Positions 2,504 through 24,000 of a DNA stretch of 24,000 bases are shown piece after piece (position 1 is the stretch's first letter; each line of letters opens with the position of its first letter). Both the position numbers and the translations under genes were made by a program. Source of the stretch: an uncultured Bacteroidales bacterium (GTDB lineage: Bacteria; Bacteroidota; Bacteroidia; Bacteroidales; P3); contig ONBK01000009.1 of the NCBI GenBank assembly GCA_900316055.1, positions 63,540-87,539 on the forward strand, given 5' to 3'. The notes beneath the pieces were generated by a model. That model was not told the origin of the DNA, did not search any database, and saw only the letters and a list, made by a program, of their open reading frames with translations.

Positions 2504-2518
2504 GGTTTAAAAGGTTTA
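2504..2518. repeat. Inverted copy of the TAAACCTTTTAAACC arm
   Basis: GGTTTAAAAGGTTTA at 2504-2518 is the exact reverse complement of TAAACCTTTTAAACC at 2350-2364. It contains the stop codon (2516-2518) of the 356-aa minus-strand gene. Confidence 0.85.
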
Positions 2519-4604: not shown

Positions 4605-4905
4605 GCCTTTAATAATACTGATTTTATTGTCAATAACGTCACATTTGCTGAATTATTGCGCATCGCAGAATCAAAAAAAATGCTCAGTCATATGTAACAT
4701 TTCGCCTCCCGTCCATACTATAAAAGCAGAAAAACACAAAAACCACAGTATATGATATACATCATTCAAAATCGCATGGTATGGATTCTCTACACCGAAA
4801 GAGACATCACTTCGCCTTGTCGACGCCTATACCTCCCCAGCATCCGCAATGAGCACAAATGGTCACCGATGGTAATACGATTGTAAATTCACAAAAAAGT
4901 AAAAC

Positions 4906-5223
4906 ATGACACCCACACACGAACAATTTAAAGAACTAATGGCATTCATAAAGAATGCCCAGGAAAAAGAAGACAAAATCAATGATGCCTTAAAAGTCAT
5001 CTGGGACGATGAACAGGGCCAATACCCTCCCTTATACATCTCGCCTTGGTGCAATGCCTCCATCCTCAATGAAATTCCTGTTCTCTGCAAACTCCAGATG
5101 CAGATCCGATGCGTATTGAATTTTCATATTATTAGTTCGTTTTCTTTTAAATCTTCCGCAAACATCCTCAATATCTTCAGCATCGCCTCATTTGCCGACA
5201 TAAACGCCTTGTCGTTTATTTGA
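4906..5223 (+). CDS. Possible small hypothetical protein (doubtful)
   Basis: The first ~60 codons look protein-like (MTPTHEQFKELMAFIKNAQEKEDKINDALKVIWDDEQGQYPPLY). The last ~100 nt run antisense through the 3' end of the 552-aa gene and read as low-complexity sequence. Confidence 0.2.
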   Translation: MTPTHEQFKELMAFIKNAQEKEDKINDALKVIWDDEQGQYPPLYISPWCNASILNEIPVLCKLQMQIRCVLNFHIISSFSFKSSANILNIFSIASFADINALSFI

Positions 5224-6782: not shown

Positions 6783-7052
6783 ACTATAATTCGTTTAATT
6801 GTTCACCCCTATAGTATGCTCCGGGACCAAAATGTTACATGCTCCCGTAAAATATTTTTGAAATATTTATTCCACCATTTACTCCACCATGAATTTCTGG
6901 CAGATTTCCAAATCCTCACATTTTTTCTTCTGCAATTATTCCAAAATCTCACAATTTATTTCTCAAAAACACCAAAACCGGAAATGTCACATGCGCCAGC
7001 AGAAATACAACGTTTTTGGCAAAAAACGCAAAAATTGCCAAAATCATTGTAC

Positions 7053-7084
7053 AAAAAAAGGCCAGCGCGTTGGTGCCAGCCTTT
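7053..7084 (-). terminator. Intrinsic terminator after the PIN-like gene
   Basis: The minus-strand RNA reads AAAGGCUGGCACCAACGCGCUGGCCUUUUUUU. It forms a 7-bp stem (GGCUGGC/GCUGGCC, two G:U pairs that exist only on this strand) followed by U7, 3 nt after the stop at 7087. Confidence 0.6.
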
Positions 7085-7086
7085 AT

Positions 7087-7614
7087 TCATATCTTCGTAC
7101 AGACATACGTGTCGAAGTTTACCAGAGGCGGGAAACTGCCCATACTTCGAACCTCCGAAATGAAAGCATTGGCCTCAGCCTTGGTCATCTTACCACGACG
7201 GATAGCATAGTACAGGAAGTCACAGGTGGTCAGGTAGGTAATACCCTTTTCCTCGCAGTAGGCCGTCACGTCCTTCGTGTTGCTGCTGCCCACCACATCG
7301 TGATGATAGAGGCAATACACCATACAGGCACTCTCTCCCCGTCCCAGTGCCGGTCCGTCCTTGGATATCAACCGCGCATACTCCTTCACCTCACCGGCGG
7401 TCTTTCCGAAAGTCTCCTCAGCAATCGTCTTCTCCTGCGATATTTCCTTCTGTAGCATCGACAGCAAAAGGGCCGGTATCTCCCACTTCACCACGTCCAG
7501 AACCATAAACTGGAACTCAGGCAGTATCAACGGCAGCTCATGCAACCTCCCGGCCTTGGCAAAATGGATGATGACATCCGCATCCAACACTATCTTAGTC
7601 TTCTTCACTGCCAT
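7087..7614 (-). CDS. PIN-like nuclease domain protein (DUF3368/VapC-like pattern)
   Basis: IVLDADVIIHFAKAGRLHELPLILPEF..VLDVVKWEI resembles the N-terminal PIN/DUF3368 block. Further acidic positions sit in GRGESACMVY and SSNTKD. It overlaps the ImmA gene by 20 nt. Confidence 0.5.
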   Translation of the reverse strand: MAVKKTKIVLDADVIIHFAKAGRLHELPLILPEFQFMVLDVVKWEIPALLLSMLQKEISQEKTIAEETFGKTAGEVKEYARLISKDGPALGRGESACMVYCLYHHDVVGSSNTKDVTAYCEEKGITYLTTCDFLYYAIRRGKMTKAEANAFISEVRSMGSFPPLVNFDTYVCTKI

Positions 7615-8299
7615 ACAGCATATTCATCAACTCGTTATAATGCCCCTCTGAAATCTTGCCTGTCTCAAACAGCGCACGCGCTTTTTCGCCAAAGTCACCT
7701 ATCACCAGCCCCTCGTTGCCAGGCTCATAGAGCGACATGTCGTAGCCGTATTCCCGTGCCGACTCTTTCACGCCAACTGCCTTCAAAGCCTCAAGCTGCT
7801 GCTGCGAAATCAGTCCGATGTCCTTCAACCGTATCAATAGCGTTATCCTCGACACCCCGAAATACTGCTCCAGCTTGAGCACCGTGGCCAGCGAAAGCTT
7901 GTGACCCATAATTTCCTCCTTGCTCACCATCGTCAGCACCCCCTCGCGAGGCATCAGCAGCGACGAGGCAAAACGGTTGGCGTTCTTTTCCTCGCCATCA
8001 ACACCGTCACCGCACATGTGAGGCATGGGCTTCTCGTCGAAATAAAGATGATACAGCTCGTGTGCAATGGTGAAATGCTGGCGGCCACGGGTAGAGTTGC
8101 TGTTGACCAGCATGAAACGCTTCTGGCCCGACATACAGCTGATACCGAACGAGTTTTCCGACAGCGGACGGTAAACCAGGGTCACGCCCAGCTTGCGGAT
8201 CAGCGTCTTGGCGTTGATGGGCTCAGCCAGGCCCAATCCCAAATCCGACCTGAACTTGGCGGCCAGTGAATCAGCTTCGATAATGGTTAGTGTCTTCAT
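7595..8299 (-). CDS. ImmA/IrrE family metallo-endopeptidase (COG2856)
   Basis: HExxH motif in FTIAHELYHLYFD, preceded by the typical RQHFTIAHE context. ATGA overlap with the upstream XRE gene at 8296-8299. Confidence 0.8.
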   Translation of the reverse strand: MKTLTIIEADSLAAKFRSDLGLGLAEPINAKTLIRKLGVTLVYRPLSENSFGISCMSGQKRFMLVNSNSTRGRQHFTIAHELYHLYFDEKPMPHMCGDGVDGEEKNANRFASSLLMPREGVLTMVSKEEIMGHKLSLATVLKLEQYFGVSRITLLIRLKDIGLISQQQLEALKAVGVKESAREYGYDMSLYEPGNEGLVIGDFGEKARALFETGKISEGHYNELMNMLYGSEED

Positions 8300-8637
8300 C
8301 GGCCAAGCAGTTTATCCATTTTCAACGAATTCTTCACGATGCGCTTGAAGGCAGCCAACTGCGCCATGTCCTCGGGCGAGAGCGCATCCACACGGAAAGC
8401 CGTCACCAGCATGCCTGCCAGAGCGGTCTCATCCTCGGTGTACAGATCAAGCAACTCGCAGCCGTAAAGGTCTGCCAACTTCTCCATCACTGCGAGCGGA
8501 ATCTCTCTATCCCCGGCCTCGTAGTTGGCGTAAGCCGACCTCCCGATGCCCAGGAAGCCTGCCACATCCTCCTGCGTGTAGCCGCTCACCTCCCGCATCC
8601 GCTTGATGTTATTCGCTACCAACATTCTCTTTTCCAT
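8296..8637 (-). CDS. XRE-family helix-turn-helix transcriptional regulator
   Basis: NIKRMREVSGYTQEDVAGFLGIGRSAYANYEAGDREIP is a canonical Cro/C1-type HTH. It is the first gene of a three-gene chain. Confidence 0.85.
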   Translation of the reverse strand: MEKRMLVANNIKRMREVSGYTQEDVAGFLGIGRSAYANYEAGDREIPLAVMEKLADLYGCELLDLYTEDETALAGMLVTAFRVDALSPEDMAQLAAFKRIVKNSLKMDKLLGR

Positions 8638-8674
8638 TGCATTACGTATTTTTCATTACTTTCAAAACCTGTGG

Positions 8675-8703
8675 CAAAAATACGAATAATTTTTGAATTC
8701 AAA
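8675..8703 (-). promoter_or_regulatory. Candidate Bacteroidetes-type promoter and palindromic operator for the XRE operon
   Basis: The minus strand carries TATTTTTG (8682-8675), which fits the TAnnTTTG -7 box, about 40 nt upstream of the ATG. A TTTG lies 17 nt further up, inside the perfect 12-bp palindrome TTTGAATTCAAA (8692-8703). Confidence 0.35.
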
Positions 8704-8744
8704 CAATTTTGTCACACTTTTTTAATCTATCACATTTTTCAAAG

Positions 8745-8767
8745 AAAAAAATGCCGATGCCCCGGCA
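8745..8767 (-). terminator. Possible intrinsic terminator
   Basis: The minus RNA reads UGCCG-GGGCAU-CGGCA followed by U7, about 40 nt after the stop of the AlbA_2 fragment. The stem is short (5 bp). Confidence 0.4.
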
Positions 8768-8807
8768 CCAGCCTTTATGAGCCATTTATGAGCCATTTAA
8801 TAATTTC

Positions 8808-9008
8808 TTATTCGGTAGTAAGCACCAGCGCCATGTCCTTCTTGCACCAAAACCATATCTTTGAATCTTCCACGCCCACCACTTGGCGATCATCATCTAC
8901 ACCAATATAGACGCGACCACCCTGAGCGTTGGCGAACCCGCAAATCCATTTCAGATATTCGTCACGCCACGATTCTTTATGCTCTATATTCTGAGATTCT
9001 TCAATCAT
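8808..9008 (-). pseudogene. N-terminal fragment of an AlbA_2 / Schlafen-type DNA-binding ATPase-regulator gene
   Basis: IEHKESWRDEYLKWICGFANAQGGRVYIGVDDD..VVGVED is the conserved start of the ~450-500-aa AlbA_2 family. Here the frame ends after 66 aa. Confidence 0.6.
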
Positions 9009-9098
9009 ATTGTATTCTTTTTCATTTGGGTATCACAGATTGCGACACCTCGCTCTCTTTTTTGAAATGCCAATTTGGCAAGTCAAAGAGACTCTATG

Positions 9099-9106
9099 CA
9101 AATATA
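9099..9106 (-). promoter_or_regulatory. TAnnTTTG -7 box upstream of the AlbA_2 fragment
   Basis: The minus strand reads TATATTTG, a perfect match to the Bacteroidetes -7 consensus. A similar AATCGTTA.ATTTGCA context recurs at 11031-11046 upstream of the DUF4143 remnant. Confidence 0.3.
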
Positions 9107-9194
9107 ACGATTCTGTGGCGATTTTATTGCGCATTATTACAAGAATTGGATATCACAATTTGTGACATCCATTGCCCTTTCAGGGCATATCCAC

Positions 9195-9255
9195 GCCCCC
9201 AACGGGGGCAAATATCCTAGCACAGGGGCTTGCCCCTGTGCATCCGGATACGGAT
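9195..9255. repeat. Three consecutive GC-rich perfect hairpins
   Basis: GCCCCC-AAC-GGGGGC (9195-9209), CACAGGGGC-TT-GCCCCTGTG (9221-9240) and ATCCG-GATA-CGGAT (9242-9255). Confidence 0.7.
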
Positions 9256-9289
9256 AAAAAAGGGAACCTTGCCATCACAAGATTCCCTT
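9256..9289 (-). terminator. Strong intrinsic terminator
   Basis: The minus RNA AAGGGAAUCUUG-UGAUGG-CAAGGUUCCCUU forms a 12-bp stem (one G:U) followed by a U-run. It overlaps the stop codon at 9275-9277. Confidence 0.75.
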
Positions 9290-9368
9290 CTTTCCGAGTT
9301 TCACCACGATGATGAGTACAATTCCCGCCACCAGAATCCAGAAGATCCATTTCAGTGTAAGGAGGAGG

Positions 9369-9421
9369 GTTGAGGGCCGAGGGTTGAGGGAACTCTTCAC
9401 TCTTAACTCTTCACTCTTAAC
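9369..9421. repeat. Tandem word array GTTGAGGG-type followed by CTCTTCA/CTCTTAA x4
   Basis: Read directly: GTTGAGGGCCGAGGGTTGAGGG, then CTCTTCACTCTTAACTCTTCACTCTTAAC. GUUGAGGG can pair with CUCUUAAC only with G:U pairs, and only on the + strand. Confidence 0.85.
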
Positions 9422-9498
9422 TAGAATGCTGTCGCGCACAGCGACGTATACAGTGTCCGTCCTCTCCACAATCTTCACCTCCGCCGCCACCCGAGAAT

Positions 9499-9530
9499 CC
9501 TGAAACTTGGAACTTGAAACCTGGAACTTC
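9499..9530. repeat. Tandem word array (GAAACTTG / GAACTTG type)
   Basis: CCTGAAACTTGGAACTTGAAACCTGGAACTTC read directly. Confidence 0.8.
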
Positions 9531-9573
9531 GTCCTGTCCGTCACCCGTTCCACTTTCAGCGTATCCCCTTCCT

Positions 9574-9600
9574 GTAAGCAGTAAGCAGTAAGCGGTAAGC
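9574..9600. repeat. GTAAGCA heptamer x4
   Basis: GTAAGCAGTAAGCAGTAAGCGGTAAGC read directly. Confidence 0.9.
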
Positions 9601-9767
9601 CAGTCACCGTCTCCGTCACCACCTCGTGTTCTGCCAGATTTTCGTTCAGATTCTGGGAGATTTGACCTTCGGTCTTCCTCCTCCTTGCAAGGCATAGCCC
9701 AAGCGAGCTTGGTCTCTGCTCTTGCTTCGTTCGTCGGTTCTTCGCGTAGCGAATCCCTTGTCTCCCC

Positions 9768-9802
9768 AACCTTGAACTCTTGAATTTTGAACCTTGAACT
9801 CT
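9768..9802. repeat. Tandem word array (CTTGAAC type)
   Basis: AACCTTGAACTCTTGAATTTTGAACCTTGAACTCT read directly. Confidence 0.85.
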
Positions 9803-10020
9803 CAGCGGTCTTCCGCTGAACGCTGCAGCTCACCAATAACAGGGCAAGTGTCCCTGTGAGGGCAATCGCTAACACGCTCAATCGCATAGCGCAGCTCTGC
9901 CACCTCGTTCCGGAGCTCCCCCACCTCCCGCTGCGAGAGCTTGCTGTAGAGTTCGGGCTGCAGCACATACGCCCACGGGCCGATAAGGGCCGATGGGACC
10001 GATGCCGAAGGCAGTTTCGC

Positions 10021-10106
10021 GTTAACAGTTAACACTTGTCCCCTGCTCACAACAAAAGGCCCCGCACCCGCGAGACCTTCCGTTTAACATTTAACATTTT
10101 AACTTT
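10021..10106. repeat. GTTAACA and GTTTAACA word arrays
   Basis: GTTAACAGTTAACACTTG (10021-10038) and GTTTAACATTTAACATTTTAACTTT (10082-10106). Confidence 0.8.
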
Positions 10107-10119
10107 CGGAGCAGCGAGC

Positions 10120-10146
10120 ACAATGCCAAGCTCGCTTGAGCATTGT
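10120..10146 (-). terminator. Hairpin downstream of the DUF4143 remnant (possible terminator)
   Basis: ACAATGC (10120-10126) pairs with GCATTGT (10140-10146) and encloses CAAGC-TC-GCTTG. There is no U-tract. Confidence 0.3.
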
Positions 10147-10181
10147 CGAGTTGTGACGAAGGTCAGCGAAGCTAACACCCC

Positions 10182-10973
10182 CTAATCCTTCAAGCACCCA
10201 ATCGGTACCACATACACACCGTCCTTACGTCTGTAAGCATAAGCACCTGTTCCCGTCAGCACCATCATAAACGAAGGCGATTTCATCTTTGTGGTATCTA
10301 TCTTTTCTGACAGAGCTTTCAGGTTTGCTGCTCCTTCCTCAATCAAGCCCTCCCCACCTAACTTAATTTCTATCAATCCATAGGTCCCGTTACGCCTATG
10401 CAGCACAGCATCACACTCCAGTCCATTCTTATCCCTATAGTGATACAACTCTCCGTCCAACGGGTCTGCGAACACACGCAAATCCCTCACAGCCATAGTC
10501 TCAAAGAATAGCCCGAACGTATTCAAGTCGTTCAGAAAATCTTTCGGTCCAATACCCAGCGCAGCCACACCTATCGAAGGGTCTGTAAAATAACGCGTAT
10601 CGCTTGTCCTTACTGCCGTTTTGCTACGAAGATTCGGATTCCAAGCTCTCATATCCTCCACCACAAAGATCTTCTTCAAAGCTTTCAAATACGAGGCCAC
10701 AGTATCATCATTCAACGAAGAGTTGTCGTTAGTCTTCATATCAGCGCGGATCACGCTGTAGTTCACAGCAGCACCTTGATGTCTGGCATACGAACGCATC
10801 AGCAATTTCACCCTCTCAGGGTCACGATCCACACCGTCAGTCCTTTGAATATCATAATGGACCACCGAATCAAAATAGTCCCTTGCCTGATCCAACGCCA
10901 CAGCGCCATCCAGCATCGATGCCTGCGGCCATCCTCCACGACAAGTGAGATAGGCCAGTTGCTCAACTTCCAT
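10182..10973 (-). pseudogene. DUF4143-only remnant of an AAA(AAA_14)+DUF4143 ATPase gene
   Basis: It starts at LAYLTCRGGWPQA, the position that follows the AAA domain in full-length family members. It ends with the typical EIDAV-type nuclease-like tail (ECDAVL...YGLIEIKLG). The ~150-aa P-loop domain is absent. Confidence 0.55.
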
Positions 10974-11239: not shown

Positions 11240-11470
11240 CTACTTGTATTGATTCTTCCTCTTATACCTCTCCTCTAACGCAAGAAGCTCATTGAACCAT
11301 TTTAGGCGTTGTTCTTCCAGCGCATTAGCGTTCATGAGCTTCTTTTGTTGCTTGACCCAATTTCTTAGTCCGCGTTCAGAATCAACGTATTTAGAAGGAT
11401 TCCGCTTATTGGCCTCAATAAACTTAATCACCTCATTATATCTTGTCAACCAACGAGTTTCTTGATCCAT
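11240..11470 (-). CDS. Helicase-associated (HA) domain mini-protein, 76 aa (copy 1)
   Basis: RWLTRYNEVIKFIEANKRNPSKYVDSERGLRNWVKQQKKL....L..QRLKWFNELL fits the single HA-domain pattern (W..y..l..F.......P.......L..W...Q.......L...R...f..L). It is a paralog of 22083-22316. Confidence 0.6.
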   Translation of the reverse strand: MDQETRWLTRYNEVIKFIEANKRNPSKYVDSERGLRNWVKQQKKLMNANALEEQRLKWFNELLALEERYKRKNQYK

Positions 11471-11500
11471 AATTCCGTAAATCCGTAAATTCGTGATTCC

Positions 11501-11518
11501 TGCGTAGCCCGCTACGCA
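11501..11518 (-). terminator. Hairpin overlapping the four-helix-bundle gene stop
   Basis: TGCGTAG-CCCG-CTACGCA: a 7-bp perfect stem that contains the TAG stop (11512-11514). No U-tract. Confidence 0.3.
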
Positions 11519-11907
11519 TTAAGGCGCTTCTTAACCTTGGCAGTGATTGTTATCAGGATTTTATTTATCCGTGAACAATCACTAAGAAGCGACTCAGCTT
11601 GAACAGTTGATAGGTATCCGTTATCCCGGAGCAGCGAGAGCCAATTCTCGCTCTCCCTGGCTTCCTTCAGTGCAATACTGGTCTTACTCAAAAAGTCGGC
11701 ATCGCTTTGTGGATGTTGCGCCTCATTCATATTGGCATTGATGCTTGTAGCAGACCTCAACAACTGCCTACCCAACGCATCGACGATATCTCTATCCGCC
11801 TTACTCAGCTTCCCCTCGTTCAGATATTTATATAGCCTTATAATCCTACAAGAGAAATCATAGCTAAACTCCAGCACTTGCGCCTCCTTCTTCTCAGCCT
11901 CTGTCAT
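11512..11907 (-). CDS. Four-helix-bundle protein (23S rRNA intervening-sequence protein / S23p family, Avd-like fold)
   Basis: LGRQLLRSATSINANMNEAQHPQSDADFLSKTSIALKEARESENWLSLLRDNGYLS matches the family core (Q..RSa.SI.aNiaEg....s..dF...l.iA..Ea.Et.yWL.ll). I place the start at Met39 (11907). The 38 upstream codons of the listed ORF (to 12021) translate the octamer array and look spurious. Confidence 0.75.
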   Translation of the reverse strand: MTEAEKKEAQVLEFSYDFSCRIIRLYKYLNEGKLSKADRDIVDALGRQLLRSATSINANMNEAQHPQSDADFLSKTSIALKEARESENWLSLLRDNGYLSTVQAESLLSDCSRINKILITITAKVKKRLNA

Positions 11908-11944
11908 AAGAGGGCGCAATTCACCTTCAAATTTGCGCACCTCT

Positions 11945-12287
11945 GAATCCACGGATTTACGGAAGTTCGGATTTCCGGACTTCTGTTTCCTGTTGTATGT
12001 TTTAGTTTTTTTCTCTTCCATTGTTCGTAGATTCGTAAATCCTTAAATCCAAAAGTCCACGCACTGCGTGTTCCGCCATTCCGTGGCAACGCCACATGTT
12101 CCGTGTTTCCGTAGATCCGTGGTTCCATTAATCCACGCTCCGCGTGTCCGTGATTCCATATCTCCGTAGTTCCGTATCTCCATAGATTCGCACGTCCGCG
12201 CTCCGCGCCTCCGTGATTCCGTGAATTCCTGGATCCGTAATTCCAGCGAAGCTATGTTCCGTAGATTCGTGATTCCTGCGAAGCATG
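11945..12287 (-). repeat. Degenerate octamer array, GGAnnnAC on the minus strand (GTnnnTCC on +)
   Basis: Hand parse of 12022-12287 gives about 28 consecutive units, for example GTAGATTC GTAAATCC TTAAATCC AAAAGTCC ... GTGATTCC ATATCTCC GTAGTTCC GTATCTCC ... GTGATTCC GTGAATTCC TGGATCC GTAATTCC. An inverted sub-block lies at 11945-11990, and the same words occur at 11471-11500. Confidence 0.85.
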
Positions 12288-12289: not shown

Positions 12290-12310
12290 CCAACGCTCGT
12301 CTTGCGTCAT
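12290..12310 (-). pseudogene. 5' remnant of a third HA mini-gene
   Basis: The minus strand reads ATGACGCAAGACGAGCGTTGG (MTQDERW). It matches the first 21 nt of the HA gene at 22316 (ATGACGCAAGAAGAGCGGTGG) at 19/21 positions, then runs into the octamer array. Confidence 0.45.
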
Positions 12311-12337
12311 TTTCAATTGATAATCTAAATGCACCAT

Positions 12338-15300
12338 TCACGCATCAAGCCACTCCTCCTGAAGTGCATTCAAGTTCACTTCAAAAGGAAGGTGATGTCT
12401 GATAACAAACAATGTGTGGTTAGCTTGATTATCCTTCCCTTCATATTCGTCAATTATCTTCATGCCCTTACTCGCAAGGAACGAATAATTCACAAATTCT
12501 TCAGGTTTAGTAAGAATACGAGACCTCCAGAATGATGCTATAAACTCATTAATTACAGTTTTCACCTCACTGCCTATCACCTTAACCAAATCGCTTTCAA
12601 GTCTTACAATAACAGCCATGATATACTTGAATGCCTGATAAGAATCCACATTGATTGTTGTAATAAGGTAAGCGAATATGTATACTGGATAGTATCTATT
12701 CATATCCAGTTTATTTACCTCGTCAATATAAGTCTTATTATACTCTTTTCTTTCCAAAACGGCAATCACCTCTTTAACAACTTCGTCGTGTATGACAGGC
12801 TGATAACTGCGCAGAATGTCACGTATCTTTTCCAGCCCGCTTCTATCGCCTGTGATAGCCATCTTCAGAGCCAGGAAAAGCACCGGTGTCATCACATACT
12901 CAATAAATTCAGAGTCCGCACTCTCCCGTTTCATCTCTGGATGCGTCTCAAATGTCTTTGTCTGAGACAAAGTGGAAATGTCTGCTATCTGCGCCACCGC
13001 ATCAAAGTCCTGTTCTTTCAGGAACACAGGCACCAAAAGAGTCACAATAAAATGGATCTCCATTGTTTCACCCCGTCTTTTGATGGCTTCCAGCACTCTA
13101 TATGCCCAATCTGTTTTCATCTTTTCCATCTTTAATGCATCACATATCTGGTACATCAGGTAGCTAGATGTAAAGATTCTATCCTCTGAATAAAGATTAT
13201 CCAAGGCCTGCGCATCCTGTTCCGTAAACATGCCACGGTACGACTTCGCCTGCCCATCTGGAACCTCTCTCACACCTAATTCACCAAGATAGTTTACCAT
13301 CAACCAATCGCAAAGGCAAAGATATGTCTTGGCAAAGGGCGATTTCAATCCTTCTTCACTTGTCACATACTTGACACACTCAGAGATCACGTCAACTGAC
13401 CTAACTCTATCGCCAGCATCCCAATACATTAGTGATAATTCGCCCAAACATTGGTAATACTCATATATTGTACTTGAATGCCCGGGCTTTTGGACATAGT
13501 CAATAACCTTCTTCAACTGAGCGATACCTTCATTCATATCCGTCTCGCTCATCACATACGCCTTTATCTGGCCCAAATGAAGATGAATATTGGGTATCAC
13601 CTCACCATACTCTGCCGTCTGCAAGGCTTCGATATATGGCAATGTTTCTTTATTCTCTACTTCATTATTCGAATAGATTGAGTATGCCATCGAGCCATTT
13701 AACAGCACTTTCGCCAAAGGATATTTTTCAAACTGAATATAATAGTTGCCATAAACTCTTCTAGTATCCTCGTACCGTCCTGCTTTATTGAATGTCTCCA
13801 TCATCTCAAACAGGGCAGAGATCGCCATTTCCGGACATCTATACTCAATTGATTTATCCAATATATGCTGTAAACCCGCTATGATATCCCCCTGTTCCCA
13901 ACTTTTCCACTCTCTATTCACTAACTGGTATCCTGCCAAGTAGCAATGCTCACATATATCACTGTCCGAGTGGTTATACTCAAAAGGTTTAGCTGCAAAA
14001 TCTTTCAGCCAGGTCTCAAACTCTTCTATCTTTGTGAAGCGGAGTGGCAAAAACCAGATGCTCTTTTTGTACAGTTCATCCATCTCGTCCAGTTCATCCA
14101 CGCCCTTGCTATTCTTATTACGTTTTTCGATAGACAGGTTGTGATATTTCAAGCCAGCTTGAATTCTGTCCTCCGACCAACACAAAACGCTCAGCACACT
14201 ATAATAGGCAGCAGTCAGTTCACTTTCCGCCGCGCCCTCAATTATCCTGCAAAGATCATTCAGTATGTAATTTCTCTTGCTAGAAGACAGATTCTTCAGT
14301 ATCGTTAGTTGCTGAACTCTGACAGCAATCCGCAAATTCTCGGTCATCAGAATTGGCAGTTGGACATCCACCCACATAGAAGGAAGAATAGTCAGTTTGG
14401 GCAAATCTTCTTTCCTGATTTTCTCCAAAGCCCGCATATACATCAGTCCTGCTTCATCATACCGTTCTGCATTCTGCGCATAGAGTATGTAGTGAAGCAC
14501 ATCCAATTCATTAAGGGGCCCAGTCTTAATCATTATTCTGGATGCCAATAGCCAGTTACAACTCCTATAGCATTCATTATCCATATCAGGAGTCCATGCC
14601 TTATCATAAAGAGGTGTCACTTTATAGAGTCCGCTTTCTTCCGTCACCCACCCTGGTGTCAGAGACAGCAGCTTACTCCTTGGTTCCGCAATCTGCGGAC
14701 TGACCGAAGCCAAAGCCTTCACATCATCCTCTGAAAAGACTGTTTTCACCAGCATCAGACGGTTCAGCAGACTTCTGGTATCAGAATCAGGAATCATCCT
14801 TTGCATCAACTCTGCCAACGAGCGAGAGAGTTTATGATCAAAAGAATAGTTCAGCATCTGTCCAAACACCTTCTCATCCATCACCCAGTTACAGGAAGAA
14901 AGATATGTACATAGTGCTCTTGCCAATACTGGATGTCCGTAACTGTGTGCCCAAATAAACTTGCTGAAGTCTTGTCTTGGCGAATAGGTCTCTATCAGTT
15001 CCTTGGTTTCTACTTCTGTCAACAACGGGACTTCCACCTGTGCCACACGGCTCATATCCACCAAAGTCATATTCTCATCTATAGGAGCGTCTGTAGTGAC
15101 GACGGGCTTTTTTCCTTCTTGTAATTCTTGATAACAGAGCCGTATTACTTCATTGAGATGACCTGATGGCACATCCGTACAAACAAAACCATCTTTGACA
15201 TTGCTGAGCACCAGCTCTGACAAAGTTCGTTTCCCTGTTTTCACACTCCCGAACAACACAAGCACCTTTCCTTCGTTACAATGCTGAACACATTGCTGCA

Positions 15301-15898
15301 CCAGTGCTTCGCGTTTCACAATATGCAGATTATTCCTATCAGCATTCCGCAATACTGATAGCGAGGATGGAATGACCGACACCTGTTTCAATTCAGGTGA
15401 AGCCTGCACATTCTTGACAATTATGTCAAGTTTATCATTGATAGCGGTCAGGCTTTGTTTTGTTTCTTTTCTTGCACCTGACAGTTGTTCTAATATAGTT
15501 TTCTGGTCGTTCTCTATTTGCTTCAGACTGGCAGCTGACATTCTTAGCAGCTTGAATTGCGTCCAAACCTTCAGTCGAGTATCCTTGCAAACTTCTTCTT
15601 CAAACAGTTCTAGTAATTTCTTGTATTGTCCTTTCTGCGGGTCAAAATCCGGGGCCGCCTTAATTTCTTCTTTAAGTGCCTCCAGATAATGATCGTATTC
15701 CCTCCTTGCTTCGTTCCCTGCATATTCGGGGTCTGCATAAAACCTGCTGATAGCCCTCTCAAAAGCATTCCTATACCTTTTCTCCATCGACTTCTTGTCT
15801 GCAAGAAAAGACACGCTTTCCTTCCCCGACTCAAAAATTGCCGTGGCAATCAGGCTCTGAAGGACAGGTGCTAAAAACAATGAAATAGAGGCTATCAT
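12338..15898 (-). CDS. Large STAND-like NTPase, 1186 aa: N-terminal hydrophobic helix and coiled coil, degenerate P-loop, long helical-repeat C-terminus
   Basis: P-loop-like GSVKTGKRT (nt 15224-15250), hhhhD stretch PVVTTD, VEVPLLTEVETKELIETY, and a SYGHPVLARAL block resembling the GxP/GLPLA motif of STAND NTPases. About 800 aa of helical-repeat-like sequence follow. ATGA overlap with the upstream gene. Confidence 0.55.
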   Translation of the reverse strand: MIASISLFLAPVLQSLIATAIFESGKESVSFLADKKSMEKRYRNAFERAISRFYADPEYAGNEARREYDHYLEALKEEIKAAPDFDPQKGQYKKLLELFEEEVCKDTRLKVWTQFKLLRMSAASLKQIENDQKTILEQLSGARKETKQSLTAINDKLDIIVKNVQASPELKQVSVIPSSLSVLRNADRNNLHIVKREALVQQCVQHCNEGKVLVLFGSVKTGKRTLSELVLSNVKDGFVCTDVPSGHLNEVIRLCYQELQEGKKPVVTTDAPIDENMTLVDMSRVAQVEVPLLTEVETKELIETYSPRQDFSKFIWAHSYGHPVLARALCTYLSSCNWVMDEKVFGQMLNYSFDHKLSRSLAELMQRMIPDSDTRSLLNRLMLVKTVFSEDDVKALASVSPQIAEPRSKLLSLTPGWVTEESGLYKVTPLYDKAWTPDMDNECYRSCNWLLASRIMIKTGPLNELDVLHYILYAQNAERYDEAGLMYMRALEKIRKEDLPKLTILPSMWVDVQLPILMTENLRIAVRVQQLTILKNLSSSKRNYILNDLCRIIEGAAESELTAAYYSVLSVLCWSEDRIQAGLKYHNLSIEKRNKNSKGVDELDEMDELYKKSIWFLPLRFTKIEEFETWLKDFAAKPFEYNHSDSDICEHCYLAGYQLVNREWKSWEQGDIIAGLQHILDKSIEYRCPEMAISALFEMMETFNKAGRYEDTRRVYGNYYIQFEKYPLAKVLLNGSMAYSIYSNNEVENKETLPYIEALQTAEYGEVIPNIHLHLGQIKAYVMSETDMNEGIAQLKKVIDYVQKPGHSSTIYEYYQCLGELSLMYWDAGDRVRSVDVISECVKYVTSEEGLKSPFAKTYLCLCDWLMVNYLGELGVREVPDGQAKSYRGMFTEQDAQALDNLYSEDRIFTSSYLMYQICDALKMEKMKTDWAYRVLEAIKRRGETMEIHFIVTLLVPVFLKEQDFDAVAQIADISTLSQTKTFETHPEMKRESADSEFIEYVMTPVLFLALKMAITGDRSGLEKIRDILRSYQPVIHDEVVKEVIAVLERKEYNKTYIDEVNKLDMNRYYPVYIFAYLITTINVDSYQAFKYIMAVIVRLESDLVKVIGSEVKTVINEFIASFWRSRILTKPEEFVNYSFLASKGMKIIDEYEGKDNQANHTLFVIRHHLPFEVNLNALQEEWLDA

Positions 15899-17001
15899 GC
15901 GTATTTCTCCATCAACTGGTTTATATTGTACTGTGTCTCAACACTAGCTATATAATGAAAAAACAAAGGATTATTGTCAAGTGACCTTTTCAGCACTTTG
16001 TTCAGAAGTCTATAACGTTGCATTTGCTGTTTATCGAATTTTTCTATGTCAGCAACAATCTCATTTAATGTCCTGTCTACAAAGATGAAATATTTTCTCA
16101 ATATTGAGACCACATAATCACATACTTGAATCATTGGGTTGGTTGCAGAATCAGAAAAACTATAGTTATTAAGCTTCGTACCATTTACTTCAATTGTGTC
16201 TTCCGTCAACAGTTTTTCGACCTGTTTCTCAGTATCAAAAACCAAAGTCCTATTTGGATAAGAATATATTTCAGCAGAGTAGAATTGTACAAACATTTTC
16301 ACCCATTCATCTGGGGTCTCATCCTGTATGAATGTGAGTTCATCTTTCTTCTTTGCTTCATTAATCTTCTTCACCAGAATACTCGCCATCATTTTATCGG
16401 GTGGATTTGGCACTGTTCCAATGAACTTTAAAACCTTTGCTTCCAAACCGTCTAAAAACACTATTTTATCTTTGTCTTTAATATCAGGATAGTGATACTT
16501 CCCAAACAGTTTAACGGTTTCCTCTGGTGATGACTTCAATATTCTGTAAAGAATCGCTTTTAGATTATGCGCCAACATAACATCATCACAGATGGAATCT
16601 ATCACATCCACGAAGGCATAATACCACACCTGAACCATGATGAAATGCACATTCCACCTCTTGCTTTCAACCAAGTCAAACGTCCTCTGAAAGGCATCCT
16701 TACGCAGAATTTCTACAAAAGAGCCTCTCAAATCTTTCGTTGATTTCAGTTCTCGTCCCGGCTCTTTACCTAATGCAGCATGAAGTTCATCATCCGAAAT
16801 AATATCCTCTGTCTGTACACCACCCAAAACAAAACAGGCATTTTCTGAGGCATTTACACGCTTTTCTGGCAATAGCACTAAATGCTTCACGTTGTCCGTC
16901 TCATCGTAATACCAAGTTTCCCTTTTATCGTATTGTTCTTCTGATACTCCCTGAGCCAAGGCCATCAGCCTGTTCAATTGATATACTCTGCTGTAATCCA
17001 T
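15895..17001 (-). CDS. DUF3800-like protein, 368 aa
   Basis: N-terminal WYYDETDN and C-terminal FSDSATNPMIQVCDYVVSIL correspond to the two conserved DUF3800 blocks (DE.. near the N terminus, DS....iQ.aD near the C terminus). Confidence 0.45.
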   Translation of the reverse strand: MDYSRVYQLNRLMALAQGVSEEQYDKRETWYYDETDNVKHLVLLPEKRVNASENACFVLGGVQTEDIISDDELHAALGKEPGRELKSTKDLRGSFVEILRKDAFQRTFDLVESKRWNVHFIMVQVWYYAFVDVIDSICDDVMLAHNLKAILYRILKSSPEETVKLFGKYHYPDIKDKDKIVFLDGLEAKVLKFIGTVPNPPDKMMASILVKKINEAKKKDELTFIQDETPDEWVKMFVQFYSAEIYSYPNRTLVFDTEKQVEKLLTEDTIEVNGTKLNNYSFSDSATNPMIQVCDYVVSILRKYFIFVDRTLNEIVADIEKFDKQQMQRYRLLNKVLKRSLDNNPLFFHYIASVETQYNINQLMEKYA

Positions 17002-17016
17002 TTCCTTCCAATCCTT

Positions 17017-18048
17017 TTATTCCACATACCAATCCGGCTTCACCCATTCAGGGAACAATCTCTGCCTCGTTTCCCTTAGTTTTGCCAAATAAAAATCATA
17101 GAAATCCCTATAGAAATTGAAGGGTTTTAGAGCCATGTCTTCTGCGATAGAATAACCTCCATACACCATGAGCCATAATCTCAGTGCGCTACCAACATAA
17201 CCCCACAACACATCTATCTCCGGGACGTCCATTCGCTTCATCAGCAAATCAATTCTGATATCCATATGTGGATGACTACCTCCACCACTAACACTGTCTG
17301 GCCCCATGAAAAGCAAGGCACACAACAGGTTGGCAATGCCAACTTTGTTTGTATAGCCATCATCTGCGCCAAACGTCTCAGCCAACCAATCAAAAGCCAA
17401 CTCATCAGCAGCTATTTCATCCTTTACCATTTGATTTGCGTTGCTAACAGTTTGTGTATGTCCTAAATAACTATGAGCCAGTTCGTGTGCAAAAATGAAA
17501 CCCACCCCACTTATCATCAATGCATTTGCCTTTCCAATTTCATCTCTAAAAGCCTGCGGGTCACATATATTGGGTATTTCAAAGAATATTTCCTTTCTCC
17601 ATTGTGTTTCCAGAAGTCTTCTCGCCCTGAAAAAAGAATCGCCTGCAAATTCTACTGCAGCCATGTTTGCTTTATAGCCATGAATATTACACCCCATTGC
17701 ATTCATCATCGGTATTTGAACCACATTGTCGAATACCGTACTGATGTAAAGACCGACGGCCCATAGAAACTGACAGAAAGTCAACGAAATGTTGATTTCA
17801 TACTTCCCATTTTTCTCTATGATTTCTCCAGGTGTCAGACAACCGTTATTCTCTTCCAAAAACAGGATATTCTTTGAAAGGTCATTTGTGTTTACCTCTG
17901 TATTTGCAGCCTCCCAAACGCCTTCAATATTTAGGACATGTTGAATACTCAAATCACGCAAAGCCTGTACTGGCAAATACAAACCAGAGTAGTCAAACAA
18001 TGATTGTTCTATAGGATACGCCATACCATCATCGCTTAATAAGGACAT
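17017..18048 (-). CDS. HExxH zinc-metallopeptidase-like protein, 343 aa
   Basis: A single FIFAHELAHSYLGH motif (nt 17458-17487). The rest is unrecognised and the family is not assignable by eye. Confidence 0.5.
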   Translation of the reverse strand: MSLLSDDGMAYPIEQSLFDYSGLYLPVQALRDLSIQHVLNIEGVWEAANTEVNTNDLSKNILFLEENNGCLTPGEIIEKNGKYEINISLTFCQFLWAVGLYISTVFDNVVQIPMMNAMGCNIHGYKANMAAVEFAGDSFFRARRLLETQWRKEIFFEIPNICDPQAFRDEIGKANALMISGVGFIFAHELAHSYLGHTQTVSNANQMVKDEIAADELAFDWLAETFGADDGYTNKVGIANLLCALLFMGPDSVSGGGSHPHMDIRIDLLMKRMDVPEIDVLWGYVGSALRLWLMVYGGYSIAEDMALKPFNFYRDFYDFYLAKLRETRQRLFPEWVKPDWYVE

Positions 18049-18164
18049 TCCATTCTGCCTGTACGACTTATACTAAAACTAGCATCAAGGTTGAAACAAC
18101 CATTCACCATGAACCCTGAACCAAAAGTGTTCTGTGCTATCTGTGTGACCTTGAGCCATGCCAT
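18036..18164 (-). CDS. Unlisted 42-aa micro-ORF (MAWLKVTQIAQNTFGSGFMVNGCFNLDASFSISRTGRMECPY)
   Basis: Hand-translated. Its ATG overlaps the upstream TAA as TAATG at 18164. Its TAA (18036-18038) lies 13 nt inside the peptidase-like gene. It fills the only apparent gap in the gene chain exactly. Confidence 0.3.
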   Translation of the reverse strand: MAWLKVTQIAQNTFGSGFMVNGCFNLDASFSISRTGRMECPY

Positions 18165-18661
18165 TACTTCAACTTCGTATTAACCCTTATACCCTTTTTG
18201 GTCTCTGAATATGACGATATATAATCTCGTGCCTTTAACACCCTCGCCAATCTCCAGGACTCTTCATTATTTGGGATTTCCGGTTTCTTTCCCTTCTCTG
18301 CAATATACTTGTAGGGGAAAGGCAACGTCTCTATGAAAGCGGAAATGACGTCTTCATCAAACACATTCTTCTCCAATGTATAATTCAGCACCCTCATCCT
18401 TTCGCCTGACATTTTTGTTAGTTTCATCACTTTCAGCAGGAAGTCCTTGTTAAGAATTACCTCTTGCCTATCGAGAAGATGAATAATCTCGTCAGACAAC
18501 TCTTCATTCAAAATAGCCACATCAAAATATGGGATAAGATTTGTCTTCTCAACAATCGTAAGGTTTGATCTCATAAGACCCACAGCAGTTTCAGTACTAT
18601 ACGCTACATCCTCTGGGGTTTTCAGCCATTCCCGTTTATGTTTAAGCAGGTACGCTATCAA
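18164..18661 (-). CDS. Hypothetical protein, up to 165 aa (TTG start; first in-frame ATG gives 136 aa)
   Basis: The ORF is open only from a TTG at 18661, with an in-frame TGA 14 codons upstream. The first ATG is at codon 30 (nt 18574). No motif recognised. Confidence 0.45.
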   Translation of the reverse strand: MIAYLLKHKREWLKTPEDVAYSTETAVGLMRSNLTIVEKTNLIPYFDVAILNEELSDEIIHLLDRQEVILNKDFLLKVMKLTKMSGERMRVLNYTLEKNVFDEDVISAFIETLPFPYKYIAEKGKKPEIPNNEESWRLARVLKARDYISSYSETKKGIRVNTKLK

Positions 18662-18721
18662 TGCAGACGAAGAATAACGGCTTAATATTCCACTGATTGA
18701 TCAATTCCATTCTTCTTCAAT

Positions 18722-18748
18722 AAAAAATAGAGAGTCCAACAGACCTCT
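18722..18748 (-). terminator. Intrinsic terminator closing the drt3 transcript / candidate ncRNA
   Basis: The minus RNA reads AGAGGUC-UGUUG-GACUCUCU: 7 bp with one bulged U, followed by AUUUUUUA. Confidence 0.5.
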
Positions 18749-18938
18749 GGGGGTCATTAGTGTGTGGAGCGAACTCCTCGGATTGGTTTTGCAACTGCCG
18801 TAGCATGGAAGGCTTTCTTGCGCCTCAACGCAATAGGCCTCCGGTGCAGCCCCAGCCCGTATATTCCTCTGCCTCTTCCGTCATGAGTGGAATTGACTTC
18901 GGACTGTCTCTTCGGGTCTGCCGGGCTCTCTAAGGGTC
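18749..18938 (-). ncRNA. Candidate DRT3-associated structured ncRNA
   Basis: A ~190-nt ORF-free stretch, GC-richer than its surroundings, between the drt3b stop and a terminator. It contains AGGC-CUA-UUGCG-UUGAGG-CGCAA-GAAA-GCCU (18810-18840) and GGAG-UUCG-CUCC (18766-18777), directly followed by CACACAC (18766-18760). Confidence 0.45.
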
Positions 18939-22082: not shown

Positions 22083-22316
22083 CTACTTGTATTGGTTTTT
22101 ATGCTTGTACTGTTCGATTTGTTCTATTAATCTCTTAAACGATTCTATACGCTCAGACTTCAATCGCCCGGCAGTATACAACTTTCTATTATGCTTAAGC
22201 CAGTTGAAGAAACGGCCCCTTTCTTCATCATTATGTTTAGACGGATTCCGCTTGTTAGTCTCTATGAAGTTCTTCACCTCATTATATTTCTCTAGCCACC
22301 GCTCTTCTTGCGTCAT
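22083..22316 (-). CDS. Helicase-associated (HA) domain mini-protein, 77 aa (copy 2)
   Basis: ERWLEKYNEVKNFIETNKRNPSKHNDEERGRFFNWLKHNRKLYTAGRLKSERIESFKRLIE. Both intact copies end in KNQYK. It lies 28 nt upstream of drt3a. Confidence 0.6.
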   Translation of the reverse strand: MTQEERWLEKYNEVKNFIETNKRNPSKHNDEERGRFFNWLKHNRKLYTAGRLKSERIESFKRLIEQIEQYKHKNQYK

Positions 22317-22341: not shown

Positions 22342-23154
22342 TCAACTCTTATTTACGGTATTGTCGCCAGCCTCCCTCACCCGCCTATACGACCATCCTG
22401 TGTGGCTCATCACCTGACGGATAGAGGCGCCTTCCGCTTTCGTGTCCAGTACGATTCGCGTCTGTTCCTCCATTGTCAGCCGCTGGAACTCAGCCACGCT
22501 CTTCGCACCACACTGCTCAATGATGAAGTCCCGCACTTCCGAGTCCTGCAGGCGCCTCGTATTGTCCACGTCCACACAATTCGCATCGCACGGCTCGTTC
22601 ACCAGTGCCCTCAAGTCCTCCAGCGAAATGCGCTTCAGCACCGCCCGAACATGGCTAATGGGCCAGCCCAACTCATCCGGTTCACGCAGGTAATCCTGAT
22701 TCCAACTGCTCCACTCGTAGTCAGCCGCATCCTCCACGATTCCTGCCTTCACAGGATTCTGGTGGATATAGCGTAGCAGCGTCGTGAAGTAATCCATATC
22801 GTTACACGGCTCGCTCTTAAAACGCTCCTGAAACAGATGCCCGATGCGCTCGTTCTTCTTGTTGTAGTAGTACACATAGCTGCTCGCCAGACTCTTGATT
22901 ACCTCCGCAATCTTCCAGTCCTTCTCCATCACCAGCAGGTGGAAGTGGTTCATCATAAGACACCATGCGTAAATCACACAAGTACGTATGGGCAGCAGCC
23001 TCCCGTCATCATCATGCTGGAACGGCAAGTCCGCAAGAATATCCATAAACCGCCGGCAATCCTCATCATCGTCGAAGATAGCCTGACGATTTATCCCTCG
23101 CATCATCACATGATAGATGCCACAGCCGCTTTCCTTTCTGGCACTCCGAGGCAT
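22342..23154 (-). CDS. REP-associated tyrosine transposase-like (IS200/Y1 HUH family) protein with a C-terminal HTH-like extension
   Basis: HUH motif in MMNHFHLLV (nt 22939-22947) and a catalytic-Tyr context in LLRYIHQNPVKAG. The N-terminal GIYHVMMRGINRQAIF is typical of this family. Confidence 0.7.
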   Translation of the reverse strand: MPRSARKESGCGIYHVMMRGINRQAIFDDDEDCRRFMDILADLPFQHDDDGRLLPIRTCVIYAWCLMMNHFHLLVMEKDWKIAEVIKSLASSYVYYYNKKNERIGHLFQERFKSEPCNDMDYFTTLLRYIHQNPVKAGIVEDAADYEWSSWNQDYLREPDELGWPISHVRAVLKRISLEDLRALVNEPCDANCVDVDNTRRLQDSEVRDFIIEQCGAKSVAEFQRLTMEEQTRIVLDTKAEGASIRQVMSHTGWSYRRVREAGDNTVNKS

Positions 23155-23166
23155 GATATGACAATC

Positions 23167-24000
23167 TCAATCTTCGTTATTCTCCTCTTCCGGCAGCGCC
23201 TGTACATCCCCTGCTGGTGGCAAGTAGTCCGCCGCCTTGGCAGGAGAAATCACCGAGTGACCAAGTTGCGATTCCAATTTGTCACGAGCGGCCTTAGCCA
23301 CACTGCCACCTTTCTTGGCCACTTTCACACTCTGTTTATAACCCTGAGGGTTCTGCTCTTTTGACAAGTCAGTAGCGGCACTCTCTGCCAACATGTTGAG
23401 GATAAGCTCCGTATTGGTCATATTGTCGCGCAGGCTCTCTTTCTTCAGTCCCTTGAACTGTTTGTATTGCCTAGTCGTTTTACCACTCCACTCGCGTGTA
23501 ATAATATCGGTAAGTGACGCATATTGCTGTCCCTGTTGCACGCCAGCGCGGTCCCACTCGTCGGTGAGGGCCTTGCGCACCTCGATGCTCTTCACCCGAT
23601 TGTTGATCCAACTTTCAGAATACCCCTTGCGGCGCCAGTCTTGTATGGCCTGATCAACCGCCAGCTCCGGGTCGGCCAACTGGTCCAGCCGTTCCTTGGC
23701 CACTTGCGCCATCCACTGCTTGAAGGGCTCTGCCTTCTTTGAAGGAATGCTCTGAATGAGGCGGAAGAGTTGCTCGGTGCTGGCCACATCGGTGAGGCGC
23801 ATCTTGCCGTCGGGAGCAAGCATCTTCAAAGCGTTACAATTTGTAACGGTTTCGTTCCCCTCTTTCTTTAAACGGTTCTTAAGGACACGCCAATAGGTCT
23901 GAGGGTTCTCACTCTCAGAGAGCACCGCACACACGTCCACGATGGAGAAGTACCACTCCTCCCGTTCGTCGTCCCATGCAGTCCGCACCTTCTTGTCCTC
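23167..24000 (-). CDS. Bro-N domain / DinD-like protein (5' end outside the window)
   Basis: VRTAWDDEREEWYFSIVDVCAVLSE...YWRVLKNRLKKEG fits the Bro-N pattern, and the remainder resembles DNA-damage-inducible DinD-type proteins. The listed start is GTG, and the frame stays open to nt 24000. Confidence 0.6.
   Translation of the reverse strand, partial: EDKKVRTAWDDEREEWYFSIVDVCAVLSESENPQTYWRVLKNRLKKEGNETVTNCNALKMLAPDGKMRLTDVASTEQLFRLIQSIPSKKAEPFKQWMAQVAKERLDQLADPELAVDQAIQDWRRKGYSESWINNRVKSIEVRKALTDEWDRAGVQQGQQYASLTDIITREWSGKTTRQYKQFKGLKKESLRDNMTNTELILNMLAESAATDLSKEQNPQGYKQSVKVAKKGGSVAKAARDKLESQLGHSVISPAKAADYLPPAGDVQALPEEENNED

Follow-up and report, generated by a model that had tools for sequence, protein, structure and literature searches.

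Does a run of tightly packed genes in a bacterial defence island amount to one defence system? The question is raised by a 24,000-nucleotide (nt) stretch of DNA from an uncultured Bacteroidales bacterium (GenBank assembly GCA_900316055.1, contig ONBK01000009.1, positions 63,540 to 87,539; the window). Five open reading frames (ORFs) at 12338-18661, all on the minus strand, were taken in a preliminary description to form a single translational chain and a candidate unnamed defence system beside the anti-phage system DRT3. The chain comprises two small ORFs, genes for a 343-amino-acid (aa) zinc peptidase and a 368-aa DUF3800 protein, and a final gene for an 1186-aa STAND-like protein. The reading that we favour, with a probability of about 0.6, is that several independent defence modules, all in one orientation and probably transcribed together, are stacked here in a Bacteroidales defence island. 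Along the minus strand these are DRT3a, DRT3b plus a non-coding RNA (ncRNA), the remnant of a gene (orf165), a Lit-like peptidase gene, a DUF3800 gene equivalent to the PADLOC entry PDC-S51, the 1186-aa STAND gene and a disrupted HA-domain gene. In kind, the locus consists of an Avs/NLR-like STAND protein adjoining two existing PADLOC entries, and the five-gene 'system' is no real unit.

The physical layout was reconfirmed. All five ORFs lie on the minus strand at the coordinates first noted, and rereading of the junctions gave a TAATG overlap at 18164, a 13-nt overlap (18036-18048), a 15-nt gap (17002-17016) and an ATGA overlap (15895-15898), as before. The block is AT-rich (GC 0.38-0.44, against 0.52-0.58 at the window ends), and its setting is indeed a defence island adjoining DRT3. 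Each of the motifs quoted at the outset was found again, namely HELAH..GH (H188/E189/H192/H197) in the 343-aa protein, YYDETDN and DSATNPMIQVCDYV in the 368-aa protein, and GSVKTGKRT (residues 217-225), PVVTTD and GHPVLARAL in the 1186-aa protein. The claim of five cooperating genes fell, as two of the ORFs, orf165 and orf42, are not intact, conserved genes: the one is a remnant and the other a chance ORF.

The shorter of these, orf42 (18036-18164, minus strand), is probably not a gene. In the closest loci (L024-L027) conservation is limited to its last 25 codons, which coincide with the region upstream of the Lit-like gene, and the ORF is a reading of the short GGTTCA-type repeat DNA found there. 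This conserved upstream region (18049-18122, minus strand) forms the 5' edge of a 5.8-kb block common to the window, L024 and L037. GGTTCA-type heptamers lie just upstream of the Lit-like gene at 18090-18125 in the window (∼3 copies) and at 6700-6790 in L024 (at least 7 copies); a regulator might bind them, or they might mark a recombination boundary. The longer, orf165 (18164-18661, minus strand, from a TTG start), is a 5'-truncated remnant of a longer gene. Residues 111-283 of P0456, a 283-aa protein of the same 90% cluster that is itself N-terminally partial, align to 18685-18167 at 91% identity. Because this alignment reaches no further than 18685 and stop codons interrupt the frame upstream of it, orf165 is a 3' remnant, the C-terminal 173 codons of a gene for at least 283 aa. 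It is missing from the closest related loci, and it breaks off right beside the end of a GC-rich 220-nt stretch that follows drt3b. Neither orf42 nor orf165 gave a family match in Pfam, PADLOC (the 2023 copy, used throughout), NCBIfam or PHROGs. A role for orf165 as a conserved partner of Lit was considered and rejected: upstream of distant Lit homologues, the ORFs of ∼173 aa form a family with a hydrophobic N-terminus that has no relation to orf165. Nor are the small ORFs in L016 and L125 related to it.

The tight spacing that suggested a single system is uninformative here, because equally tight junctions link plainly unrelated genes in related loci. A glycosyltransferase gene is followed by Lit after 3 nt, Avs4 by Lit after 11 nt, and a DUF6016 (cupin-like) gene overlaps a STAND gene by 16 nt. 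Packing is tight across the arrays, and therefore the junctions are a property of the array and no signature of functional coupling. Scans of the block for sigma-70-type promoters and for terminators gave nothing above shuffled expectation, and none of the five ORFs has the Bacteroides -7 motif TAnnTTTG upstream. The stack as a whole is likely to be co-transcribed, yet such scans settle this neither way, and co-transcription has no bearing on whether the stacked genes cooperate.

The genes were separated by a survey of genomic contexts, in which the 11 STAND clusters sampled showed ten different upstream arrangements. The order Lit-DUF3800-STAND is found with STAND homologues at 92% identity (L024-L027, L037), preceded by a 275-aa gene, a HATPase_c_3 gene and a Metallophos gene, with no orf165 or DRT3. 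At 82% identity, DUF4238 and then Lit precede STAND, Lit directly (8 nt), and there is no DUF3800. Elsewhere the upstream neighbours are AbiTii and a 112-aa gene (STAND 84% identical), two DUF2971/PDC-S31 genes (71%), a PARIS-like pair with two small genes (60%) and a DUF6016 gene that ends a capsule locus and makes the 16-nt overlap noted above (51%), while at 37-40% identity the STAND gene is preceded by Fic/PDC-S04, by PDC-M62A/B, by AbiE or by nothing. DUF3800 stands before STAND in one arrangement and Lit in another, and one STAND clade stands alone beside a methylase system on the opposite strand. The trio is thus restricted to loci whose STAND protein is at least 92% identical to the window copy, and no co-occurrence of all three genes was found across divergent genomes. 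Lack of co-occurrence elsewhere had been named in advance as evidence against a single system, and beyond the closest relatives this is largely what the homologues show.

Lit and DUF3800 are likewise found without STAND and without each other. Among 80 metagenome loci of the Lit family, two carry STAND and one carries DUF3800. DUF3800 is present or absent between Lit and STAND as an exact gene-sized unit across loci, and in L039 the 30-nt spacer between Lit and STAND (4655-4684, matching window 15899-15927) keeps the last ∼27 nt of the DUF3800 gene. From this scar it follows that DUF3800 was lost there while its Lit and STAND neighbours were kept.

STAND and Lit-like genes also occur in, or appended to, Bacteroidales capsular-polysaccharide operons (L013-L015, L028-L032, L044, L053-L057), with gaps of 3-16 nt or overlaps to glycosyltransferase or DUF6016 genes, and the first gene of L024 is NusG/UpxY-like. 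Long transcription units of the capsule type may carry defence genes along.

What, then, is the largest member of the stack? The 1186-aa protein (12338-15898, minus strand) had no match in Pfam, PADLOC, NCBIfam or PHROGs, and the curated STAND models (NACHT, NB-ARC, nSTAND, AAA_16/22) did not recognize it. The initial statement that no named system matches this combination of genes holds for this protein; it fails for Lit and PDC-S51, both of which are PADLOC entries. The protein belongs to an unannotated Bacteroidales family of 52 homologous clusters, all ∼1180 aa long, unnamed and metagenomic. Its distribution is patchy, with occurrences in 3 of 185,579 species-representative genomes, all Bacteroidales, and viral contigs that were searched held no STAND relative. 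A profile of the wider superfamily, with canonical Walker A, Walker B and GxP motifs, gathered 1044 representatives at 50% clustering and reaches DnaA, Cdc6, NRC4 and Apaf-1. Alignment of 38 diverse members gave the consensus GxxxxGKTQL, WIxL, hhVLDDhP, hLSTS, IPxLxxxE and GHPxLV, which is textbook STAND. A few distant superfamily members match the curated models weakly (NB-ARC at 3.5e-5, NACHT at 1.5e-6, nSTAND3, AAA_22). A search of PDB sequences with the STAND profile (A1) returned nothing significant.

The AlphaFold2 (AF2) model of the protein (pLDDT 80) gives the order of its parts: residues 1-165 form a helical N-terminal domain, which a disordered linker joins to a P-loop core of four strands (196-294), and a module of helices and a winged helix (295-440) and an alpha-solenoid (441-1186) follow. 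The top Foldseek match of the model in the PDB is 6mfv, a STAND protein with tetratricopeptide repeats (TPRs), at E = 2.9e-7, and TPR proteins dominate the matches below it. The GxP and winged-helix module followed by a repeat arm, as expected of the STAND superfamily, are both present. The model identifies the protein as a STAND NTPase whose C-terminal arm is TPR-like, and the guess of a STAND-type NTPase with helical repeats, in a large protein without a match to a named family, was correct. One detail of that guess was not: PVVTTD, first taken for Walker B, is a sensor-1-like strand.

The P-loop core (15017-15313, minus strand) is a reduced one, with the Walker A sequence GSVKTGKRT, a Walker B strand FVCTDV and the sensor-1-like VVTT. 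Within the family G217, G222, K223 and T225 are invariant, and position 224 is R, G, S or T. The clade at 37% identity has canonical GKT and IIDDV in contrast to GSVKTGKRT and FVCTDV in the window protein, whose predicted beta-alpha-beta core lacks one strand-helix unit. The following module (14579-15016, minus strand), with the invariant GHPVL of the GxP motif and a winged-helix hairpin at 418-427, is conserved better than any other segment of the family: even its most distant members are 47-51% identical there, against 29-35% in the NTPase core. The solenoid (12341-14578, minus strand), assigned from AF2 secondary structure and the Foldseek TPR matches, is a putative sensor.

The N-terminal domain (15404-15898, minus strand) starts with a hydrophobic helix, followed by a helical bundle and a long helix, and is a putative effector. 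Its Kyte-Doolittle maximum over 19 residues is 1.88, and it is all-helical in both AF2 models. When the domain was modelled separately (pLDDT 70), Foldseek found nothing below E = 2.8, and no enzyme motif was recognized in it. The role is suggested by its relatives. In the superfamily the stretch ahead of the P-loop ranges in length from ∼90 to 400 residues and carries Metallophos, PGAP1/DUF676 esterase (lipase), trypsin, SMEK_N and NNH5 domains as well as PADLOC matches to LmuA/DUF4297 (Cap4-like) nuclease. Relatives swap the N-terminal ∼190 aa: the homologue from Parabacteroides sp. An277 keeps residues 192-1185 behind a metallophosphoesterase N-terminus, and in P0156 the N-terminal domain of the window type is fused to an unrelated C-terminus. 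The N-terminal domain of the window protein thus appears to be its own, putative output module, in the slot that effector domains occupy in its relatives.

The other end of the protein is also variable. Between the window and the 92% homologue in L024, nucleotide identity is 99% in the 5' half of the gene and 69% in its last 300 nt, and residues 1001-1100 are 68% identical against 90-100% elsewhere. The last ∼190 residues are a different allele (window 12338-13400 compared with L024 11470-12531). The C-terminal end of the sensor arm was swapped, which indicates recombination and fits a sensor region under diversifying pressure.

The 343-aa protein (17017-18048, minus strand) is a HExxH metallopeptidase, as first read, and is placed by its sequence as a distant member of peptidase family U49 and a distant relative, no equivalog, of Escherichia coli Lit. 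It matched PADLOC Lit at 3.5e-14 and NCBIfam PRK09672 Lit at 7.6e-15, with residues 69-292 covering model positions 55-276 of 309. Both curated thresholds exceed its scores, which are 54.9 bits against the NCBIfam equivalog cut-off of 274 and 20.2 bits against the Pfam U49 gathering score of 23.9. A precomputed PF10463 assignment exists for all 105 of its homologues. HExxH, GHT and HPxMDxRI are invariant in Lit-like homologues down to 36% identity, and H188, E189 and H192 in 16 diverse homologues, and the HExxH motif lies within a U49-like domain. A search of PDB sequences with the Lit profile gave no match.

Like Lit of the E. coli e14 element, the protein has the HExxH core, homology over most of the model and a gene amid defence genes. 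Unlike it, it is very distant in sequence and belongs to a family found in Bacteroidales, often in capsule loci or in contexts that resemble conjugative elements. Other neighbours in the Lit-family loci are Avs4 (11 nt upstream), PDC-S46 (10 nt downstream), PDC-M62A, capsule glycosyltransferases (3 nt) and a small ORF family with a hydrophobic N-terminus. In L046, L050-L052 and L105, a Lit-like gene 53-55% identical to the window copy lies 11 nt after the gene for a 1491-aa Avs4 homologue (PADLOC E 6e-295), a second, independent abutment of Lit-like and STAND genes. A 730-aa gene after a 55% Lit homologue was examined as a cryptic STAND relative and proved to be PDC-S46. E. coli Lit cleaves EF-Tu on activation by the Gol peptide of the phage capsid, which is bound to EF-Tu. 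SeAvs7 assembles on a capsid protein together with EF-Tu (PMC13581612). With Lit-like genes abutting both Avs4 and the STAND family of the window, this capsid and EF-Tu parallel between Lit and SeAvs7 is a lead only.

The 368-aa protein (15895-17001, minus strand), as first read, is a DUF3800 protein, and it is equivalent to PADLOC PDC-S51, which is only a candidate entry. The match to PDC-S51 is full-length (E 5.2e-91, residues 11-366 on model positions 10-371 of 376), the Pfam DUF3800 score is 24.5 bits, over the gathering score of 21, and D33/E34 (the DE motif) and Q292/D295 (QxxD) are invariant in its homologues. In these respects it is like other members of PDC-S51 and DUF3800; unlike them, in part of the family the gene directly follows a Lit-like gene. 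An RNase H-like fold has been predicted for DUF3800 (PMC7736814, PMC10910872). An Rfam scan of the whole window with E up to 1 gave no matches, and hence neither a known DUF3800-associated RNA motif nor a catalogued DRT3 RNA is found there. A DUF3800 profile searched against PDB sequences yielded only spurious PCNA matches. A homologue at 42% identity lies inside a type I restriction-modification operon without Lit. Full-length relatives occur on 144 plasmids from many phyla, against one plasmid for Lit-like genes, and in the viral contigs DUF3800 relatives were found only at 24% identity. The ORFs upstream of plasmid DUF3800 genes were considered as a hidden peptidase, and no HExxH motif was found in them.

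As one of a stack of independent modules, the STAND protein would act alone as a receptor of the Avs/NLR type. Characterised Avs proteins (PMC13581612) suggest, by analogy, how it would work: a ligand from the phage would bind to the TPR-like C-terminal arm, and the reduced P-loop domain would then bind nucleotide and so make the protein oligomerise. The N-terminal domains, now clustered, would become the effector, possibly at the membrane, killing or arresting the cell and aborting infection; an anti-phage phenotype is likewise expected by analogy. The Lit-like and DUF3800 genes are most simply viewed as separate single-gene modules. From homology, the former may encode a protease that attacks a host translation factor when triggered, and the latter an RNase H-like nuclease.

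The Avs proteins, or antiviral STAND NTPases, reportedly described by Gao et al. in 2022, are NLR-like pattern-recognition receptors of bacteria and the closest known counterparts. The likeness lies in a layout of three parts, with the STAND NTPase between an N-terminal module and a large TPR-like arm, the exchangeable N-termini, the variable C-terminal end, the defence-island setting and the single, self-contained protein. Unlike them, the window protein matches no Avs, bNACHT, NACHT or NB-ARC model, Avs1-5 of PADLOC included; it has R for S/T in Walker A, a degenerate Walker B and ∼50 aa fewer in its NTPase core, and its N-terminal domain has no recognizable fold. One of the 38 aligned superfamily members matches PADLOC Avs2 at 3e-30, a match whose region could not be told. 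The catalogue of Lee et al. 2026 (PMC13581612) distinguishes 589 clades. The STAND families that it associates with defence and that differ in structure number at least 90 (198 clades); most have TPR-like sensors, and their N-terminal effectors are many, transmembrane ones included. A bolder, rather doubtful version of the receptor reading is that the protein founds a Bacteroidales family of resistosome-like receptors. In such a family the stripped NTPase, possibly non-hydrolysing, would still drive ligand-induced oligomerisation, and the portable N-terminal module, with its hydrophobic first helix and bundle, would then insert into or disrupt the membrane like the N-terminal helix of a plant CC-NLR. 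The hydrophobic first helix, the helical and portable nature of the domain and its position in the slot of relatives' enzymatic effectors are compatible with this.

Several observations weigh against a stack of independent modules with a working receptor at its end. The genomic contexts sampled come from redundant metagenome assemblies, with no phylogenetic correction. The Lit-DUF3800-STAND block is kept in two different flanking contexts at ∼94% nucleotide identity (in blastn, a shared 5.8-kb block, 18122-12344, at 93.9%). A second arrangement, at 82-86% protein identity, also has Lit next to STAND, and in three Lit clades DUF3800 comes after Lit. Neither a promoter nor a terminator was detected inside the block, and therefore its genes are probably co-transcribed. 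Finally, the clade of the window protein is reduced relative to its superfamily, with ∼50 aa between Walker A and Walker B gone, R in place of the Walker A S/T and FVCTDV as Walker B, and an NTPase switch so degenerate may be impaired. The shared block, the second Lit-STAND adjacency, the tight junctions and the lack of internal terminators would also suit one multi-gene system, with STAND as the sensor, Lit and DUF3800 as protease and effector and the small ORFs as accessories. We regard this as highly improbable. It is largely refuted by the context survey, where STAND homologues at 84%, 71%, 60%, 51% and 37-40% identity lack both partners; besides, orf42 and orf165 are not intact genes, the N-terminal domain of the STAND protein itself occupies the effector position of its relatives, and unrelated genes are joined just as tightly. 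A smaller unit, in which Lit and DUF3800 form a real two-gene system (for example a protease sensor or effector with an RNase H-like nuclease) and STAND is an unrelated neighbour, is unlikely but deserves more credit. The 15-nt gap between the two genes is the same in the window, L024, L037 and L117/L118, and in L117/L118 (Lit 55%, DUF3800 80% identical) a HEPN_RES_NTD1-RES gene lies downstream in place of STAND; L125/L126 (Lit 61%, DUF3800 58%) keep the same gene order, and ∼8 Lit and DUF3800 clusters have longest contigs of equal size, which is a hint only. Set against this are the single Lit locus in 80 with DUF3800, the Lit alleles of L033, L039, L052 and L057 that are 80-86% identical to linked ones and have no DUF3800, the loss of DUF3800 from L039 beside a retained Lit and STAND, and the wide occurrence of DUF3800 relatives without Lit. 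The divergence of the two genes between the window and L117 is also incongruent (55% and 80%), and each is a single-gene entry in PADLOC.

Two further explanations concern the STAND protein itself. It might be a hub sensor that uses any toxin-like gene upstream (Fic, DUF3800, Lit, DUF2971, AbiTii and others) as an exchangeable effector acting in trans, and indeed in nine of the ten arrangements the end of a co-oriented gene lies anywhere from 16 nt inside the STAND gene to 63 nt ahead of its start (∼350-460 nt in L016), and most such neighbours are toxin-like or defence candidates. The existence of stand-alone STAND loci makes this hard to believe, as do upstream neighbours that are complete systems themselves (AbiEi/AbiEii, PDC-M62A/B) or, in one case, the DUF6016 gene ending a capsule locus, and the conservation of the N-terminal domain throughout the family. 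Least likely of all, in our estimate, is that there is no role in phage defence, the STAND-TPR protein being for instance a MalT-like regulator and the peptidase a housekeeping enzyme. This draws on the presence of some homologues in capsule loci and on the best structural match, the MalT/MNS-type 6mfv of Pyrococcus horikoshii, which is not a defence protein. Like the window protein, 6mfv has a STAND NTPase followed by TPRs; the two are unlike in that identity is 12%, the TM-score over the whole chain is 0.15-0.26, and 6mfv has neither a defence link nor a comparable N-terminal domain. The window STAND protein has no DNA-binding output domain, its neighbours are overwhelmingly known defence genes, the N-termini of its superfamily include nuclease, protease and lipase domains, and its distribution is as patchy as described above. 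All of this argues against a role outside phage defence.

The boundary with DRT3 differs from the original account, in which a terminator separated DRT3 from the cluster. According to a 2026 preprint, the DRT3 ncRNA carries an ACACAC template and lies directly downstream of DRT3b. For this reason the gap that follows drt3b is most likely more than a terminator, namely the third DRT3 component, and a probable ncRNA at 18715-18938 (minus strand), part of the neighbouring DRT3 and outside the cluster, has ACACAC at 18765-18760 in an unpaired stretch, a T-run at 18727-18722 and a fold z-score of -2.5 against shuffles.

At the opposite end, the STAND gene is followed by the start of a small HA-domain gene (12290-12337, minus strand), which an insertion interrupts after ∼9 codons; the homology to L021 extends as far as 12290. 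In L018, L021 and L033 an HA gene of 76 aa follows STAND at a distance of 28-32 nt. Genes of this kind, 76-77 aa, were found at 22083-22316, 12290-12337 and 11240-11470 in the window, at 11591-11821 in L018, at 11589-11819 in L021 and at 12610-12840 in L033. In the window one precedes DRT3a, and an intact copy lies 0.8 kb beyond the one cut off after STAND; HA genes may be recombination anchors for module exchange. The insert that splits the HA gene (11482-12284, ∼800 nt) carries a gene for a four-helix bundle of the 23S rRNA IVP family (11512-12021). It is flanked by 27-nt direct repeats (11482-11508 and 12258-12284, 93% identical) and is full of TCCGTARA repeats with an 8-nt period. The rest of the window at 2516-10973 and 22342-23988 also has the look of mobile or defence-type cargo, with every gene on the minus strand: Bro-N, an IS200-like Y1 transposase, a truncated DUF4143 ATPase, an ImmA/IrrE M78 peptidase, two DUF488 genes, a DuOB-domain protein and a 552-aa protein (5124-6782) with no Pfam match.

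For automated scans, the locus means that overlapping or near-abutting co-oriented genes are no evidence of a shared system in Bacteroidales, where whole defence islands, and even capsule operons with defence genes set into them, are packed as closely. The current picture of bacterial immunity is unchanged by what was found here, given the number of defence STAND families already in the catalogue cited above (PMC13581612). The leads that it offers are more specific: a STAND/NLR-like family missed by current hidden Markov model libraries, whose NTPase is minimal and degenerate, whose N-terminal domain is portable and whose C-terminal end recombines; a recurrent adjacency of Lit-like and DUF3800 genes, possibly a two-gene system; and direct evidence of gene-sized module gain and loss inside one array.

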